Source: Promethearchaeota archaeon Loki_b31
Lineage (GTDB): Archaea; Asgardarchaeota; Lokiarchaeia; Sigyniarchaeales; SOKP01
Length of the DNA: 11,257 nucleotides
Assembly: GCA_005222975.1 (NCBI GenBank)
Contig: NJBI01000084.1
Location: forward strand, 1-11,257
Reading direction: 5' to 3'
Below are positions 647 through 11,257 of the stretch, one piece after another. Within the stretch, counting starts at the first letter, position 1, and every line of letters begins with the position of its first letter. Both the position numbers and the translations under genes were made by a program. The notes below the pieces were generated by a model. That model worked only from the letters and a program-made list of their open reading frames with translations. It searched no databases and was not told where the DNA came from.

Positions 647-1994
647 TTATAGATCATTTATTTCAAAATCTCTTATAATTCGAATTAATTTATTTGAAGT
701 AGGATTTCTTATTGGTTTCTCAAAAATAACTTTTATATCAGGTTCAATACACTTATAGGAAGCAAACACATTTTTTACATTTCTTGAAATGCTATTAATT
801 ATTTGCTCTTTATCAATATTTTCAGCTTTAAGATAAATCCTAATTAAAATTGTTGTGTAATCTTTTTGAATTGCTTGATACTCTTCAATCTCATCTGAAC
901 TGGTAATAATGGCTCTTCGGATGTAATCAGGAAAAATACATTGCAACTCATCACAATCGATTCGCTGAGCCCAATATAAATCGTCAGTTCTACCTAAAAT
1001 TTTTTCAATTACTCTAAATGAAGAACCACATCTACATGAAGAATCTGATATTAAAATACTGTCATCTAATTCAAATCTTATAATAGGTTGTGATCGTTTG
1101 TTTAGATCCGTGATAATAATTTTATGTGGGTTCTCCTGGTTGTGTTAATTGTCCATCAAAACCTACAGTTTGAACATATATAAGATCCTCGTTTAGGTGC
1201 AGGCTAGCATATTTACATGACATAGCAATTGGCCCTTCACTACATTGATAAATTTGATGAACTTTTACACCAAAAATTTGTTCTAGTTCATCCTTAACAT
1301 CAGGAGAAAGTACTTCCGCGTAAGATACTATCCTTTTAGGTTTGATATTTAATCGGCTTGCATTCACCTCTTTAGCTAAAATTTGAAGCATAGAAGGTGG
1401 AGCAGATAAAATATTAGGATTTAATTCCTCCAACTGATCTTTAATATTTTCAAGAGTATTTAATTGGCTAATGTAAGTTAATCTCTGTCCAAATTTGCTC
1501 ACATTAAATGCGGGAGTAGAAATCCGAAGAATAAAAGCCCATTTTATTTTTAAAACCCTTGGAAGAGGAAATCGTGCAAAAAGTGCAGCTTGAAGATATT
1601 TCTCTTCTTGTGGACTGGTTATCACAATTCCTTTGTTCCCACTTGTACCTGAGGACATAGCGAGGTTATATCCATAAAATCGTTTATTATAGCTTTGGGT
1701 TTTTTCAATTTCTAAACAAAAATTAAGCATATCATGTTTAGTAAATCCAAGAGTGTTATAATCAGATAAGTTTTCCATCATCAGTTTCTTATTTGTAATA
1801 GGAAGAGACCATACATCTTTTAGATTAAATCCTCTAAAATGTTTATGAAAGTACTTTGAATTATTATATGCAAAATTTACAAGTGCTTGTGCCTTTTTTA
1901 GTTGGTAAATCTCCAATTTTTCCTTATTCATGAATTTGAATCTCCACTTACACGCTAAGAAAAAATTCAGAAAAGAATCTGTTTCGAGCCTCAT
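647..1994 (-). pseudogene. Phenylacetate-CoA ligase (PaaK)-like / F390-synthetase-related adenylate-forming enzyme, split by one frameshift near 1127 (about 448 aa if repaired)
   Basis: ORF 1122-1994 carries the P-loop MSSGTSGNKG, plus SYAEVL and HQIYQCSEG. The +1 frame from 1126 reads HKIIITDLNKRSQPIIRFELDD...CRCGSSFRVIEKILGRTDD and runs straight into ORF 647-946. These are the expected C-terminal motifs of the family. Confidence 0.85.
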
Positions 1995-5240: not shown

Positions 5241-6902
5241 TTAAACTAAGATTTTTATTTCCTCGCCGAATACTATCTTATTAGCAATTTCAAAAGCGAT
5301 ATTGTAATCAAAGACTTTTTTACCTTTTGTCTTTAAAGCTTTCTTAAAGATTTCCCTCTCAATTTTGTATTTTAATCGTCCTATGTTAAGAGCACCTATC
5401 GCATAAATACCAGGATAGAACTCCGTATTATAATAGTCTGGTTTCATTCCTTCTATTCCATAGGGAGGAACCAAATTAATATCTACGACAATTTTATTTG
5501 GAGGAAGTTGGTTCATTAATTTTTTTGAGATCATTTGGACTCCTGCTTTACCAACAGACCATATTATATCTGCGTCCCTCACTATTTTCAGATATTGTTC
5601 ATCTGAATTTGCTGGCTCTCCTATAATCTTAGTGGCACCTCTTCCTGCCTTCTTAGTCAAATCTTTTGCCAATTCTTTTACGAATTGTTCTCTTCTTGAA
5701 GTAATGACTACTTTTGCTTTAAGTTTTGAAGCAATTAGAGCGGAAATTTGCCCTACAGGGCCAGTTCCTCCTAAACAAATTATCTTTTTACCTGATAAAT
5801 CTGAAAATCCATGTTTTCTTGCAACCTCTAGTGTTTTTGCAACTATTGCTGAAGCTGTTGTATGAGAACCACGTGGATCTATAATTACAGGAGATTCAAA
5901 TGGAGGAATAATTGTTTTCAAAACTTCCTCCGCAATTTTTTCACTTTCTATAACATCAGAACCACCAACAAAATAAACTGAAGAAGCTCCCGCTTTTCGA
6001 GAGAACATAGCATCTTGAACTAGCCTTGAGACGCTGTCTGCTTTCATTCTAGAATATGGTATTACTATATCAAATCCCGCATCATAGCCCATATTTGTAT
6101 CAAAAGGAGAACAATACTCATCCGTATCAAAAAAGTATAAAATTCTTTCTTCTTTTTCTTTTTTTATAACTTTTATAGGCATTATTTCAAGTATAGATCT
6201 ATTCAATAAGTCATTAATCGATGTTTCTTCATCAGGATATTCTGTAACTTTCTTAAGATTAATTATTTCAATTCCTATATCCAATTCTTTAGCTAAAAAT
6301 GTGATGCCATCAAAATGACTTTTATCAGTAATAAAAAATGCTTTTAATTGGTTTTTTTCTTGTTTTTTGGCTAATTCTAAGATAGTCATCATCATCCAAG
6401 CTTCACGGACTTTATATCTTATTTCATCTTCTTGTGCTTTGAAATCATCTTTTAATAATTGTTTCCAAATAATTAACTGTTGAAAATTAGGATCGTTATA
6501 ATGTACACGACCCATTTTTTTATAACTTTCAATCTCTTCTGTGATTTTTTTTATAAAACCTTTCTTATCCATTAGTGGTGCTGAAATTACATTTAATGCA
6601 TAATCCGGAATATCCACAAATTCATATGGGATATCTGCATTTAGAAAAATCGCTCCAAATTCATCATCAATAGATGGTTCTTCACTTGAACGCATTCCTT
6701 TATCTTCTACTACGAAATTAGGGCGGTATTTGTTCACTAAATCTTTAATAAATTCTATGTACGCCCTAGAAACAAAAAATAAATTACCCAGTATTCCTTC
6801 TTCTTTTGGTAATTCTAAAGCCCAATCTATCCTAAATTCACTCTCAACTAATATTAATTTAAGTTTTTTTTCTTTTAATCGTTTTAATTCTAAAACTTGC
6901 AT
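5241..6902 (-). CDS. NAD(P)-dependent methylene-H4MPT (or -H4F) dehydrogenase, MtdA/MtdB family, with an additional ~215-aa N-terminal domain
   Basis: The C-terminal ~300 aa (5241-~6150) has SPFDTNMGYDAGFD..IPY, VQDAMFSR, PPFESPVIIDPRGSHTTA, the Rossmann motif GGTGPVG and DINLVPPYGIEG. The start is placed at ATG 6902 (MQVLE) because GGAGG lies 10 nt upstream and it aligns with the paralog's MEVLE. The alternative ATG 6911 overlaps the upstream stop (ATGA). Confidence 0.88.
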   Translation of the reverse strand: MQVLELKRLKEKKLKLILVESEFRIDWALELPKEEGILGNLFFVSRAYIEFIKDLVNKYRPNFVVEDKGMRSSEEPSIDDEFGAIFLNADIPYEFVDIPDYALNVISAPLMDKKGFIKKITEEIESYKKMGRVHYNDPNFQQLIIWKQLLKDDFKAQEDEIRYKVREAWMMMTILELAKKQEKNQLKAFFITDKSHFDGITFLAKELDIGIEIINLKKVTEYPDEETSINDLLNRSILEIMPIKVIKKEKEERILYFFDTDEYCSPFDTNMGYDAGFDIVIPYSRMKADSVSRLVQDAMFSRKAGASSVYFVGGSDVIESEKIAEEVLKTIIPPFESPVIIDPRGSHTTASAIVAKTLEVARKHGFSDLSGKKIICLGGTGPVGQISALIASKLKAKVVITSRREQFVKELAKDLTKKAGRGATKIIGEPANSDEQYLKIVRDADIIWSVGKAGVQMISKKLMNQLPPNKIVVDINLVPPYGIEGMKPDYYNTEFYPGIYAIGALNIGRLKYKIEREIFKKALKTKGKKVFDYNIAFEIANKIVFGEEIKILV

Positions 6903-6907
6903 TATTT

Positions 6908-7537
6908 TCATCCCTCCTTTAACATTACGATTGATTTTAATTTCTCTTCTCGAATATCATATTTTATGACTTTGATATTATATTCTTCAAATAATTTTTT
7001 CAGTTCAGAAATTAAATCTTCATGAGCAAAATGGATTATAGATAAATTATCATTTTTGATGTTATTTACAACATCTAATATTTTTTTTACAATCCATTTT
7101 GGTTTTATGGTATATTCTAATAAGTTTTTAGTATATTCCACTTTATCTTTTAACAAATATATCCAAGAGTTTAAGCTCTGAGCTTTAAATGTGTCTTTTT
7201 TATTATTCAAAAGAAGTTTTTCATATTCTTGCTCTAATTCTTCTATCTGTACTTCCAAGTCTAAAAGCTCAACATAAAAATAAGATTTAATACTTTCAGG
7301 GATTTCAACTTCGTAATAAGGCAAATGGAATTTCTCTATAAACTCTGATAAAGGAGTTTGATAATATTTTTTAACATCGGGATCGTTAAAATCAACAATT
7401 GCAAACTTAAATTTTTCTGCTTCTATGATTTTTTCTAAATTACTATTATGTAAACTTAATAAATCTCTGTCTTCTCTTCTTATTAAATAGATATTAACCG
7501 TTTTATTTTTTATAGGATGAAACTCTAAAACTTCCAT
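6908..7537 (-). CDS. Hypothetical protein (209 aa), stand-alone paralog of the N-terminal domain of the downstream Mtd fusion
   Basis: Long ORF abutting the next gene, with collinear similarity by eye: MEVLE/MQVLE, LPYYEVEIPE/IPYEFVDIPD and QSLNSWIYLLKD/QQLIIWKQLLKD. Confidence 0.85.
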   Translation of the reverse strand: MEVLEFHPIKNKTVNIYLIRREDRDLLSLHNSNLEKIIEAEKFKFAIVDFNDPDVKKYYQTPLSEFIEKFHLPYYEVEIPESIKSYFYVELLDLEVQIEELEQEYEKLLLNNKKDTFKAQSLNSWIYLLKDKVEYTKNLLEYTIKPKWIVKKILDVVNNIKNDNLSIIHFAHEDLISELKKLFEEYNIKVIKYDIREEKLKSIVMLKEG

Positions 7538-7654
7538 TGAATTAACGCATTAATAATTAATTTAATTTCTTTTACTATAGAACAATTTTAGACAGAAATA
7601 TTATAAATATTCGGATAAACATATTTTTATCTCATTTGACAAGAATAATTGTTA

Positions 7655-7690
7655 TTATCAAAAATAAAATTATCATAATTTTTCTTATCA
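7655..7690. promoter_or_regulatory. Candidate operator in the divergent intergenic region: TTATCA x3 at 15-bp period, with an 8-1-8 palindrome
   Basis: TTATCA at 7655, 7670 and 7685. AAAATTAT-C-ATAATTTT at 7666-7682. Confidence 0.3.
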
Positions 7691-8026
7691 AGTTTTTTTA
7701 ATTGTTAAATGATGAAATTTAATAATCTAATCTTTTTTTCTATGATCTTTTTTAATTTTAATTATCTAAATGTGTTGTAGAAGATTTAAATTTTTCAAAA
7801 TATTGATTAAATCACAAATAGGAACGATTATACTAAGTTGGGAGACTTCTTCAGAGCTTAATCTTACTATCATCAACCTTCTAATATAATTCTTCTTTAT
7901 ATTATCGATTCTGAACTTTTAACTTCTTCTTATTAATAATCATTAATTTAAAAATATCTAAGTGATTCTAAATCCTATAAGAAGAGATTATAAACTTATA
8001 ATATTAAAAAATTTGATGACTTAAAA

Positions 8027-8911
8027 TTGCCATTCGAAATTTTAGAGAAAAGAGAACTTGGGACTAGTGGTATAGTGTTTGAAATGATAATATCTACTCC
8101 TTTAATCGCTCGAAAAGCGTATGCGGGAAATTTTATATTACTAAGAATCAATGAAACTGGAGAACGGTTTCCATTAACCATTGCAGATTACGATCGAGAG
8201 AAAGAAACGATAACTATAGTATTTCAAGTTGTTGGAAAAAGCACGAAATTACTCTCACATTTAGAAGTAGGGGATATGATACTTGATGTAGTGGGGCCTT
8301 TAGGAAATGAAATTCATATAAAAAAGTACCAATATCCCGTAGTGATAATTGGAGGTGGTGTGGGTATTGCACCATGCTACCCTCAAGCAAAAGAATTAAA
8401 GGAAGCAGGAAATAAAGTTATTTCGATATTAGGTGCTAGAAATACCGAATTATTGTTTTGGAAAGACAAAATGAGCTCAGTAAGCGATGAATTAATTATT
8501 TGTACAGATGACGGAAGCGAGGGGATTAAAGGAGTTGTCACTGTACCACTTACAGAAATAATGAAAAGAGAAAAAATAAGCATTGTTATCGCAATTGGAC
8601 CTTTAATAATGATGAAATTTGTTGCTCTTACAACTAAAGGGTCTGGCGATTTACCTAAAGTAAAAACATTTGTCTCCCTAAACACAATTATGATTGACGG
8701 AACTGGAATGTGTGGCGGTTGCCGCTTTTCAACGCTTAACGGAGGAGTTCAATTTGCGTGTGTTGATGGTCCCGATGTCGACGGTCATATCGTAGATTTT
8801 GATAATCTATTGAAACGCGCTAATAGATTTATTGATCAAGAGAAGGAGTCCTTAGAATGTTACAACGAAGAATGTAGAGCTTTAAAAAAACTTAGGAGTG
8901 AAGTGTCTTAA
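8027..8911 (+). CDS. nfnA: NfnA/SudB (FNR/PyrK-like FAD, NAD and [2Fe-2S] small subunit of NADH-dependent reduced ferredoxin:NADP+ oxidoreductase)
   Basis: Motifs GERFPLTIAD, VVGKST, DVVGPLG, GGGVGIAP, TDDGSEG, IGPLIMM and the Asp/Cys [2Fe-2S] motif MIDGTGMCGGCR...ACVDGP. TTG start, directly upstream of an NfnB-containing gene. Confidence 0.92.
   Translation: MPFEILEKRELGTSGIVFEMIISTPLIARKAYAGNFILLRINETGERFPLTIADYDREKETITIVFQVVGKSTKLLSHLEVGDMILDVVGPLGNEIHIKKYQYPVVIIGGGVGIAPCYPQAKELKEAGNKVISILGARNTELLFWKDKMSSVSDELIICTDDGSEGIKGVVTVPLTEIMKREKISIVIAIGPLIMMKFVALTTKGSGDLPKVKTFVSLNTIMIDGTGMCGGCRFSTLNGGVQFACVDGPDVDGHIVDFDNLLKRANRFIDQEKESLECYNEECRALKKLRSEVS
8894..8901 (+). promoter_or_regulatory. Shine-Dalgarno-like site AGGAGTGA for the gene starting at 8913
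   Basis: Lies 11 nt upstream of ATG 8913, inside the 3' end of nfnA. Confidence 0.55.
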
Positions 8912-8912
8912 A

Positions 8913-11257
8913 ATGGAAAAGCAAAGATCTTTAGTTAAAATATTACTTAAAAATAAAGAACAGATTCTGGAGTCAGGAAAATATAACGAGGCAGAATTTG
9001 GAGATTTAATTAGCGAGTTAACCGATGTAGAGCGTTCTAGACAAGAAATTCTAGAAAAAATAGAAGAACATGGCTCTATTGATATTCCTAAATTGAAAAA
9101 AGAACTACAATTATCAGAAAAAAATCTGTTATGTAATATTGAGTATCTAAAAGAGTTAGGCTTTTTAGGATTTATTGGGGAGAAACCAAGGTTTTTTCAA
9201 GATGTAGTAGAAATTTCTAAACAAAACGGTATTTTTCCTAATGTAACAATAATTAAAGACAAAAATCTGTGCAATGGTTGCGGTTTATGTGCTTCCATTT
9301 GTCCAGTTGGAGCAATAAACTATTCGGAGGGGACATTTGATTTTGACGAAGAAATGTGCATTGATTGCGGGTTATGCTATACTTGCTGTCCACGAACATT
9401 CTTTCCGAAGGTTTTAGAGGCCCCTGAAGAAAACAATGCTCCTGATATTAAATTTTTAGAGCAATTCAATTATTATCAGGAAATTTGTACTGCTCAAACA
9501 ACTGATGAAAGAATAATAGCAGTTGCTCAAGATGGAGGAATTGTGACTACGCTGCTGAAAATGGCGTTTCAACAAAAATTAATCGACGGTGCTTTAGCTG
9601 TAAAAGAAGGAGAAGAACCTCTAAAACCGTTACCACATTTAATTGAAGATGAAGATGAACTCCTACATACAGCAGGGACAAAATACACAAATGCTCCTAT
9701 TTTAAAAATATTTCAAGGCTGTAGGGGTCACGATAAATTTGCAGTAGTGGGTACCCCTTGTATCATGAAAGCGCTTAAAAAAATTTCATTTTTTCCGTTT
9801 AATAGACCATTTTGTGATAAGATTGCTTTAAAGATCGGATTGCTTTGCATGGAATCGTTTGATTACAAAAAAATTGGTGAACTTTTAAAAAATGAGTTTA
9901 AATCTACTCCTGCTGATGTTAAGAAAATGGATATTAATAAAGGGCGTTTTATAATCTACGATCATAACGGTTCTGCTTTTGATGTTCCAATAAAAAAAAT
10001 TAAAAAGTATGGTCGGTTCGGTTGCTTTTTTTGCGACGATTTGACATCGATACATGCTGATATTTCCGTAGGATCTATTGGTTCTGATCCTGGCTGGTCA
10101 ACGGTATTTATACGGACTAAACGAGGTGCTGAATTCTTTCAAAAAGCTTTGGATCTTAATATGATCGTTAAGAAGGAGATTAAAGAAGATAGTAAAAGTT
10201 TTGAATCTCTAAGTAGAATAGCAAAATCTAAATTAAAGAAGTTTGAAGAATATCATCGCCCAAAGATGATTGAACAAGACCCCAATATTAGGAAAAATAA
10301 CTTTGAAGAGGTTCCTAAGGGATTGACTATTGATATGGTCAAGTTAGAAACACATAGATGCTTACAGTGTGGAGACCCGCTCTGTGTTACTGGATGCCCC
10401 GTTAACATAAGAATTCCTCAATTTATAAAATTATTGAAGCAAGAAAAATATATTGGGGCTCTATACGAAATAAAATCATATAATTTATTGCCCGCTATTT
10501 GTGGAAGAGTTTGTCCGCAAGAATCTCAATGTGAAAAATATTGTTTATTAAGTGGTCTTGGGGAACCAATTGCAATAGGATATATGGAAAGATTCATCGC
10601 AGACTGGGAAAGAGAAAATAATCTTAAAGAGTGTCCCGAATGCGCAGCTCCTAAAGGTATTAAAGTTGCAGTTATAGGTTCTGGACCGGCGGGTTTAGCT
10701 TGTGCTGGAGAACTTGCGATGAATGGCTACGATGTCACTATATTTGAAGCGTTTCATGCTGGTGGAGGTGTATTAACTTACGGAATTCCAGAGTTTAGGT
10801 TGCCAAAAGATATAGTCAAAAGCGAAATTGAGACTTTAAAGATGTTAGATGTTAAAGTTGAATATAACGTAATTATTGGTAAAACTTTAACGATCGATGA
10901 TTTGAAAGAACTGGGATTTAAAGCCTTTTTTATTGGAGTTGGAGCAGGACTTCCAATATTTATAAAAATACCGGGAATAAACTTAAACGGCGTCTTAACT
11001 GCTAACGAATTCCTCACTCGATCGAATTTAATGAAAGGTTTTAAGTTCCCTGATTACGATACTCCTATTAAAATTGGAAAAATAGTAACTGTTATAGGAG
11101 GGGGAAATGTCACTTTAGATTCCGCTAGAACCGCTTTACGATTAGGTGCTGAAAAGGTTATTATTGTTTATCGTAGGTCCGAAGTAGAGATGCCTGCGAG
11201 AAGAGAAGAATATCATCACGCTTTAGAAGAAGGCGTTGTTTTTCAATTCTTAACAAA
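8913..11257 (+). CDS. nfnB: Fusion protein, 3'-partial (at least 781 aa): helical/wHTH domain + 2x[4Fe-4S] ferredoxin + FrhB (FpoF/FqoF-like F420-binding) + NfnB/SudA large subunit
   Basis: One open frame from ATG 8913 to the edge. Ferredoxin: CNGCGLCASICP (9270) and CIDCGLCYTCCP (9357). FrhB: AQDGGIVT, AGTKY, VVGTPC, IGLLCMESF and GCFFCDD..ADISVGSIG..GWSTV. NfnB from ~10257: RKNNFEEV, RCLQCGDPLCVTGCP, ICGRVCPQESQCE, GSGPAG, YGIPEFRLP, GGGNV and YRR. Confidence 0.92.
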   Translation, partial: MEKQRSLVKILLKNKEQILESGKYNEAEFGDLISELTDVERSRQEILEKIEEHGSIDIPKLKKELQLSEKNLLCNIEYLKELGFLGFIGEKPRFFQDVVEISKQNGIFPNVTIIKDKNLCNGCGLCASICPVGAINYSEGTFDFDEEMCIDCGLCYTCCPRTFFPKVLEAPEENNAPDIKFLEQFNYYQEICTAQTTDERIIAVAQDGGIVTTLLKMAFQQKLIDGALAVKEGEEPLKPLPHLIEDEDELLHTAGTKYTNAPILKIFQGCRGHDKFAVVGTPCIMKALKKISFFPFNRPFCDKIALKIGLLCMESFDYKKIGELLKNEFKSTPADVKKMDINKGRFIIYDHNGSAFDVPIKKIKKYGRFGCFFCDDLTSIHADISVGSIGSDPGWSTVFIRTKRGAEFFQKALDLNMIVKKEIKEDSKSFESLSRIAKSKLKKFEEYHRPKMIEQDPNIRKNNFEEVPKGLTIDMVKLETHRCLQCGDPLCVTGCPVNIRIPQFIKLLKQEKYIGALYEIKSYNLLPAICGRVCPQESQCEKYCLLSGLGEPIAIGYMERFIADWERENNLKECPECAAPKGIKVAVIGSGPAGLACAGELAMNGYDVTIFEAFHAGGGVLTYGIPEFRLPKDIVKSEIETLKMLDVKVEYNVIIGKTLTIDDLKELGFKAFFIGVGAGLPIFIKIPGINLNGVLTANEFLTRSNLMKGFKFPDYDTPIKIGKIVTVIGGGNVTLDSARTALRLGAEKVIIVYRRSEVEMPARREEYHHALEEGVVFQFLT

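Follow-up and report, generated by a model that had tools for sequence, protein, structure and literature searches.

A free paralog, lacking most of the conserved polar site, beside the accessory domain of an Asgard MtdA-type dehydrogenase

What is the small gene that lies directly upstream of a dehydrogenase gene in a Loki-type Asgard archaeon, and what could it have to do with that enzyme? The question is raised by an 11,257-nucleotide stretch of DNA (positions 1 to 11,257 of contig NJBI01000084.1, assembly GCA_005222975.1; hereafter the window) from Promethearchaeota archaeon Loki_b31, which has a GC content of ~30%. It carries an open reading frame (ORF) of 209 amino acids (aa), here called the free copy (P0001), and directly after it an ORF of 556 aa, the fused gene (P0002). 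Judging by its domain matches, the C-terminal ~300 aa of the fused gene (269-556) are an MtdA-type NAD(P)-dependent methylene-tetrahydromethanopterin (methylene-H4MPT) dehydrogenase. Specifically, residues 269-346 match PF09176 (Mpt_N) with E 5e-22 and 78.2 bits against a cut-off of 27, residues 367-479 give weaker, sub-threshold matches to AlaDh_PNT_C, F420_oxidored and Shikimate_DH (the Rossmann domain after Mpt_N), and homologs of the gene are named methylene-tetrahydromethanopterin dehydrogenase in their sources. No Pfam or NCBIfam model matches residues 1-255 of the fused gene, or anything before residue 269, or any part of the 209-aa protein. A preliminary description, made from the sequence alone, had suggested that these two unnamed regions form perhaps a new family, that the free copy is a paralog of the N-terminal accessory domain of the fused gene (the N-domain) from end to end, and that the pair is an active/inactive heterodimer docked on the dehydrogenase. 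The first of these suggestions agrees with the absence of any Pfam or NCBIfam model; named homologs of both genes come from Promethearchaeota, Lokiarchaeota and Thorarchaeota.

Paralogy of the free copy and the N-domain

The collinear peptides on which the paralogy had been proposed are all present in the two ORFs, namely MEVLEFHPIKNKTVNIYLI, LPYYEVEIPE and QSLNSWIYLLKD...YTIKPKWIVKKILD in the 209-aa ORF and MQVLELKRLKEKKLKLILV, IPYEFVDIPD, QQLIIWKQLLKD...YKVREAWMMMTILE, RPNFVVED and ITDKSHFDGI in the 556-aa ORF. A direct BLASTP comparison of the free copy with the fused gene gives E 7e-5 with 26% identity over 116 aa, and the Smith-Waterman score of 101 is attained by 0 of 2000 composition-preserving shuffles, which score 44 +/- 8 (Gumbel p 5e-5). 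The relationship becomes end-to-end at the level of families: an hhalign comparison of 19 free copies with 93 fused N-domains returns a probability of 99.6% and E 1.1e-23 over 197 columns (Q1-197 versus T4-221), as against control values of E 0.12 for a reversed profile and E 0.28 for the MtdA domain. Hidden Markov model (HMM) cross-hits between free and N-domain forms are found in all cassettes, and both AlphaFold models show the same order of strand, helix, strand, helix, strand, long helical hairpin, strand, helix and strand, with AF2 pLDDT (predicted local distance difference test) values of 78 for the free copy and 83 for the fused N-domain. The 209-aa ORF is thus confirmed as a true paralog of residues 4-221 of the fused gene.

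The free copy is also a real gene under purifying selection. It has 20 homologs of 200-213 aa that likewise lack a Pfam domain. Among 68 sampled genomes of the family to which the window belongs, 55 carry it at a constant length (~204-227 aa), and it occurs in three more Asgard families. Compared with a 98%-identical ortholog, its ratio of nonsynonymous to synonymous substitution rates (dN/dS) is 0.09, and orthologs of 50-60% identity give 0.23-0.29. It evolves faster than the rest of the pair, with dN of 0.30-0.37 versus 0.16-0.29 for the fused N-domain and 0.13-0.20 for the MtdA part. These results bear on an alternative in which the similarity is a product of chance or of the composition of a low-GC, Lys/Glu/Ile-rich proteome, or in which the upstream ORF is not a gene at all. 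The low pairwise identity and the GC content of the genome could be cited for it, yet the shuffles, the profile score relative to its reversed control, the constant-length orthologs and dN/dS values well below 1 all refute it, and we regard its probability as negligible. As a separate observation, comparison with the closest relative (locus L007, on contig C167 of genome G125) over window positions 5241-7537 shows a free copy that is 98% identical with a dN/dS of 0.09, and a fused gene whose first 325 aa are only 90% identical with a dN/dS of 0.46. Recombination could account for such a difference within 2 kb, as could relaxed or positive selection acting on the fused N-domain.

The two genes abut, as had been claimed, with the stop codon of the free copy (TGA, 6908-6910) overlapping the first ATG of the fused gene (6909-6911) in the sequence ATGA. 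A second ATG at 6900-6902 follows the first by 9 nucleotides (nt) and a GGAGG by 10 nt, and translation from it begins with MQVLEL. Because homologs begin with M(E/Q)VLEL and because the GGAGG spacing suits the second ATG, the true start of the fused gene is probably this one, which would place the annotated start (MKIM...) 9 nt too far upstream. With either a GGAGG and 5-nt spacer or the ATGA overlap, the spacing of the junction fits translational coupling of the two genes; in related cassettes the spacers range from -13 to +37 nt, overlaps counted. A TTTATAA is found ~65 nt upstream of the free-copy ATG, and the AT-rich region before the free copy is presumed to hold the promoter of a two-gene operon, which would be bounded downstream by a convergent HdrD-like gene and upstream by this divergent region followed by nfnA and a frhB-nfnB fusion. 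The features of the locus are given in Table 1.

Table 1. Positions of the two genes, their parts and the flanking region in the window.
Feature	Position	Strand	Basis
Free 209-aa paralog of the MtdA accessory domain (P0001)	6908..7537	-	ORF, translation
Fused 556-aa gene (P0002)	5241-6911	-	ORF directly after free copy
N-terminal accessory domain, aa 1-255 of fused gene	6147..6911	-	translation; 98 fused homologs
Linker strand and MtdA-type dehydrogenase domain, aa 256-556 with stop	5241..6146	-	PF09176
Gene junction: GGAGG, TGA stop, two ATGs	6900..6925	-	direct sequence reading
AT-rich divergent intergenic region, free copy to nfnA (490 bp, GC ~22%)	7538..8026	.	composition, sequence

Elsewhere in the window, a 290-aa ORF at 1122-1994 (minus strand) aligns with no more than the central portion of the AMP-binding enzyme model (profile positions 170-345 of 384). 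It could be an acyl-CoA synthetase-like gene in truncated or fragmentary form. A search of sequencing runs detected the DNA of the window in sediment, subsurface and cold-seep metagenomes.

Conserved sites and fold of the accessory domain

The conservation of individual positions was compared between 170 non-redundant N-domains and 79 free copies, in P0002 numbering (Table 2). At this scale the preliminary description was right that the fused copy retains motif residues that the free copy has lost, and this is the case for E69, R74, E170, H199 and G202. The free copy retains D49, K/R145 and W148, and most of its other conserved polar residues are gone. The best-conserved stretch in both families is the N-terminal peptide M-E-V-L-E(-L), which is a candidate docking peptide since it is unstructured in the models. 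Note that the stand-alone N-domains of the split cassettes described below lack G72 and R74, with EEKPNFW in place of EEKGMR.

Table 2. Occupancy of conserved N-domain positions in the two families.
Position	N-domains	Free copies
E23	84%	variable
E25	86%	variable
E69	E/D 97%	I/V
Position 70 (D70)	acidic 99%	D49, 90%
G72	94%	variable (N 33%)
R74	91%	variable
R169	99%	K/R145, 91%
E170	95%	Pro 80%
W172	100%	W148, 85%
H199	90%	L/I/T
G202	94%	Glu 75%

The preliminary description had also raised a TraB/Tiki/EreA-like fold, and here the evidence is divided. The N-domain is modelled as an alpha/beta core plus a long helical hairpin (aa 103-183). Its two best Foldseek matches in the PDB are 8b6h_DQ, a Tetrahymena protein deposited under the name 'TraB family protein', and 8bqs_DQ (E ~0.02, probability 0.77-0.82); a genuine Asgard TraB profile matches 8b6h_DQ at E 9e-7. 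Among the VIA matches with the longest coverage (at least 140 residues), the N-domain aligns with ChaN (2g5g, Z 7.7 over 147 aa), 8b6h_DQ (Z 7.6 over 151 aa) and HopBA1 (5t09, Z 7.1 over 141 aa), and the free copy gives ChaN (2g5g, Z 8.2 over 145 aa) and EreC (6xcq, Z 7.0 over 135 aa). Both ChaN and HopBA1 are listed among TIKI-superfamily folds (PMC6254334). In the ESM Atlas the nearest named cluster is TraB/GumN for both proteins (0.79 and 0.81), and a TraB cluster aligns with the N-domain at TM 0.49/0.53. Shorter alpha/beta domains of the CbiF/CbiL type (tetrapyrrole-methylase-type) match at Z 8-9 over fewer residues, and exhaustive VIA searches are dominated by helical-hairpin matches, with neither ChaN nor TraB in the top 50. 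PF01963 gives no match at E <= 1 for either protein and none among weak family members, and when the two family profiles were run as HMMs against the PDB, neither gave a match. An hhalign comparison of the N-domain with Asgard TraB gave P 0.0013 over 116 columns, with E..R, D-x-P, R-x-x-x-M and H-x-x-G in register. With a larger profile P became 0.003-0.01, and this link was dropped as evidence because an unrelated MtdA-domain control scored comparably against TraB (0.0058). What stands is therefore a plausible fold assignment, carried by the top Foldseek match and by the ChaN and EreC matches and tempered by Z scores in the noise range and a control-level hhalign result. On the models it is fairly probable that the accessory domain has a very divergent TIKI/TraB/ChaN-like fold.

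When set beside TraB/PrgY/GumN (PF01963, of the TIKI/EreA/ChaN superfamily), the domain shares a predicted alpha/beta core in which inserted helices separate strand 3 from strand 4. The fused copy also has E-x4-R, hhD-h-P, R-x-x-[YW]-M and H-x-x-G in collinear positions, and the best PDB match of the N-domain is the only solved TraB family protein. The domain differs in having no HMM-level similarity and a profile-profile score at control level, in lacking the first His (GTxH), in having Glu for the Asn of the R-N motif, in the spacing of strands 1-2 and 2-3, and in being tied to MtdA. Canonical TraB/GumN genes (PF01963) are found in 8 of 12 genomes of related orders; a search of relatives found none in the window genome or in 18 other sampled genomes of its genus.

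Active members of the TIKI/EreA/ChaN superfamily carry a 2His/2Glu signature reported to be essential, with its first His located after strand 1 (GTxH in TraB; PMC6254334). In the 170 N-domains the position of the first His is occupied by F (74%), Y (20%) and only rarely H (3%), and in free copies by D, N or K; the second His corresponds to H199, and the Glu that follows strand 2 to the position with E/D in 97% of N-domains and I/V in free copies. From its sequence the accessory domain is thus not a canonical hydrolase of this superfamily, since the first His of the 2His/2Glu set is absent, and the word 'active' for the fused copy lacks support in that form. A related alternative would nonetheless make the fused domain an active TraB/Tiki/EreA-type hydrolase, perhaps on a one-carbon (C1) pterin such as methenyl-H4MPT, with the free copy an inactive pseudoenzyme in a heterodimer docked on the dehydrogenase. 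The residues E69, R74, R169, H199 and G202 are kept and are collinear with the TraB motifs E-x4-R, R-N-x-x-M and G-x-G-H, the E-to-R and R-to-H spacings equal those of TraB, and the motif residues are lost in the free copy. A hydrolase beside a dehydrogenase would moreover parallel the bifunctional FolD, and FolD, Fch and FTHFS were not found in the window genome, which is 92% complete. Against this stand the F or Y at the first His position in 94% of N-domains, the replacement of E23/E25 by K/R and A in Thor/Hermod-type sequences, Q or T at H199 in some lineages, and the lack of a Pfam TraB match. As to the pathway, the genome carries a canonical Mch cyclohydrolase together with an F420-dependent Mtd, and the H4MPT route thus has no gap that a new hydrolase would need to fill. 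Together these points make an active hydrolase unlikely. The idea of a missing cyclohydrolase, which was considered in its own right, is likewise unsupported given that Mch is present.

Cassettes, distribution and neighbouring genes

We searched 1.84 billion representative proteins with an N-domain-only profile (cut-off E <= 0.001), and just 127 clusters matched; those inspected are fused, stand-alone or free forms, except for one saposin-repeat false positive. A contig search with a narrower N-domain alignment returned only contigs labelled Thor-, Hermod- or Promethearchaeota. ESM Atlas clusters labelled Bathyarchaeota are unconfirmed, and all named matches seen are Asgard. Co-occurrence with MtdA, which the preliminary description had named as a check, is strong: among 301 Asgard genomes, 82 carry both the domain and MtdA (PF09176), 3 carry the domain only (two of them at contig ends) and 9 carry a small MtdA only, so that 82 of the 85 genomes with the domain also have PF09176. 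These counts are given without a statistic because the genomes are related to one another. The small MtdA-only genes, of 300-320 aa, occur in few Asgard genomes.

Four types of cassette were observed. The first is the free copy followed by the fused gene, as in the window. The second is split, with a free copy, a stand-alone N-domain (~242 aa) and a separate MtdA (~335 aa), and is found at a second locus of the window genome (contig C58) and in genomes G207 and G171; a Cdc48-type AAA ATPase gene follows cassettes of this type. The third combines free, stand-alone and fused forms (G040, G147 and G180), and the fourth, in Thor- and Hermod-type lineages, has the fused gene alone. At each of the >20 places in the fetched loci where a linked cassette was mapped, the gene next downstream of the free copy, in the same orientation, encodes a fused or stand-alone N-domain. 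In the split cassettes the last helix and strand of the domain linker (the equivalent of ...LEIMPIKVIKK) are encoded in the MtdA ORF, which suggests strand complementation in trans. An unrooted maximum-likelihood tree places all free copies on one side of a branch (SH-aLRT support 90), with subclades that mirror those of the partner N-domains. The mirrored subclades indicate inheritance as a cassette, not binding. Because the tree is unrooted, loss of the free copy in Thor- and Hermod-type lineages and its never having been there are undecidable from it.

Several further forms were noted. The second cassette of the window genome (L050, the same locus as L005; 10740-15517) consists of a 209-aa free copy, a 242-aa stand-alone N-domain, a 337-aa MtdA and then a 757-aa Cdc48-type AAA ATPase, with an F420-dependent Mtd gene (PF01993) 3 kb downstream at 16020-16868 (minus). 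Between the Cdc48 and F420-Mtd genes, an 86-aa ORF at 15663-15923 (plus) aligns with the free-copy profile over its helical hairpin (30 bits, positions 79-136) and may be a remnant or mini-paralog. A permuted protein of 496 aa (P0164, NCBI-derived, from a 12.6-kb contig) has MtdA first (aa 4-299) and the accessory domain last (aa 299-488), and its motifs, KNSWM and FIGGISHWRGI, look nearer to those of TraB. A third free-type lineage of 168-220 aa is not adjacent to MtdA and was located at L046 (3870-4460, minus), L047 (3890-4438), L048 (3616-4278), L049 (3641-4255) and L052 (3484-3990). The L046 copy lies between mvhD and a polyferredoxin gene, downstream of an hdrA-like gene, and the L048 copy has genes for TPR (tetratricopeptide-repeat) proteins as neighbours.

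The neighbouring genes are concerned with electron transfer. In Loki-type cassettes the divergent neighbour of the free copy is hdrA-mvhD, as at L050, where hdrA-mvhD (848 aa), mvhG and mvhA occupy 5828-10429 (minus) and diverge from the second cassette; in the window nfnA and frhB-nfnB stand there instead. The Thor/Hermod-type contigs (L053-L067, L028, L029, L039 and L040) have hdrA-mvhD, mvhG, mvhA and the fused N-domain-MtdA gene in this order on the same strand, and within these stretches no free copy and no hdrBC were found. With PF01993 and MtdA both encoded, the window genome has dehydrogenases of both the F420 and the NAD(P) type for a single step.

This neighbourhood is the basis of an alternative in which the free copy is independent of the fused domain, has HdrA-MvhD/Mvh or Nfn as its partners, and adjoins MtdA only through its origin in a tandem duplication. 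Unlinked free-type copies do exist, the one at L046 in an hdrA-mvhD setting, and electron-transfer genes are the divergent neighbours both in the Loki-type cassettes and in the window. However, families whose sequences differ by 40-50% still share the tight, seemingly coupled junction, and the adjacency survives the split, triple and duplicated rearrangements of the cassette, which history alone hardly explains. Other unlinked copies, for example that beside the TPR genes, have unrelated neighbours. We therefore consider an independent free copy improbable.

Proposed role of the pair

Our preferred account is that the free and fused genes form a bicistronic operon, probably translationally coupled, that would encode an MtdA-type dehydrogenase with an N-terminal Asgard-type accessory domain together with a free paralog of that domain. 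The accessory domain would be an autonomous alpha/beta module with a helical hairpin and a conserved polar pocket of two acidic positions, two Arg and one His, which is not the canonical 2His/2Glu site and could serve ligand binding or a non-canonical catalysis. The free copy would descend from one old duplication, after which the fold, MEVLE(L), D49, K/R145 and W148 were retained and the other pocket residues disappeared. It would most likely be a partner subunit with a dead site that assembles with the fused domain into a pseudo-symmetric heteromer derived from an ancestral homomer, and the pair would modulate or scaffold MtdA. Of this account, the analysis establishes the paralogy, the purifying selection, the conserved adjacency, the co-occurrence with MtdA and the differing conservation of the site, whereas we infer co-translation, the association of the copies with each other and with MtdA, the fold and any biochemical role. 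Taken as a whole, this is the account toward which we lean, though with modest confidence.

Several points weigh against it. The fold matches reach only Z 7-8 and a Foldseek probability of 0.8, scores that lie within the noise or common range of these tools. The strongly kept polar set of the N-domain could mean true catalysis rather than binding. Mirrored trees are expected from linkage alone. Thor- and Hermod-type lineages have the fusion without the free copy, and the partner is thus dispensable there. Finally, about nine genomes have extra free-type copies away from any MtdA gene, of which five were mapped, so that the free lineage can function without an adjacent MtdA. A complex prediction for the N-domain with the free copy scored 0.01, which is below the mark and counts neither for nor against binding.

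A more specific possibility is that the accessory domain and the free paralog act as an adaptor that docks MtdA on a flavin-based electron-bifurcating module, which would be MvhAG-HdrA/MvhD in most cassettes and NfnA/FrhB-NfnB in the window. We think this quite a long shot, striking though the linkage to the hdrA-mvhD genes in the Thor/Hermod-type and Loki-type contigs is. If true, the methenyl/methylene-H4MPT step of the Asgard Wood-Ljungdahl pathway would be wired into a hydrogenase or Nfn supercomplex.

The site-dead partner account can be set beside two known patterns. Bacterial MtdA and MtdB, which act on methylene-H4MPT or methylene-tetrahydrofolate (H4F) in methylotrophs, are single-module proteins of ~290 aa. 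The C-terminal ~300 aa of the fused gene resemble them in combining PF09176 (Mpt_N) with an NAD(P)-binding Rossmann domain, and the Asgard enzyme differs in adding a 250-aa accessory domain and a free paralog. Enzyme and pseudoenzyme paralogs encoded side by side are a general pattern, and the likeness here is that one copy keeps the polar site, while the paralog beside it has kept the fold but not the site and has evolved more quickly. Unlike in such pairs, both an activity of the 'active' copy and a complex are hypothetical here. A literature search of limited breadth turned up no paper describing either the domain or the pair.

Asgard MtdA is almost never alone: it comes with a lineage-restricted domain that has a conserved polar pocket, in Loki-type lineages with a site-dead copy of that domain, and with hydrogenase/HdrA or Nfn neighbours. 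This suggests that a core step of carbon and electron flow has an accessory or coupling component not described before. MtdA acts in the H4MPT branch of the Wood-Ljungdahl pathway, a pathway at the heart of how Asgard metabolism and the archaeal host of eukaryotes are modelled. The pair is also a clear natural example of a domain and a degenerate paralog that have stayed together while their genes were fused, split and duplicated.

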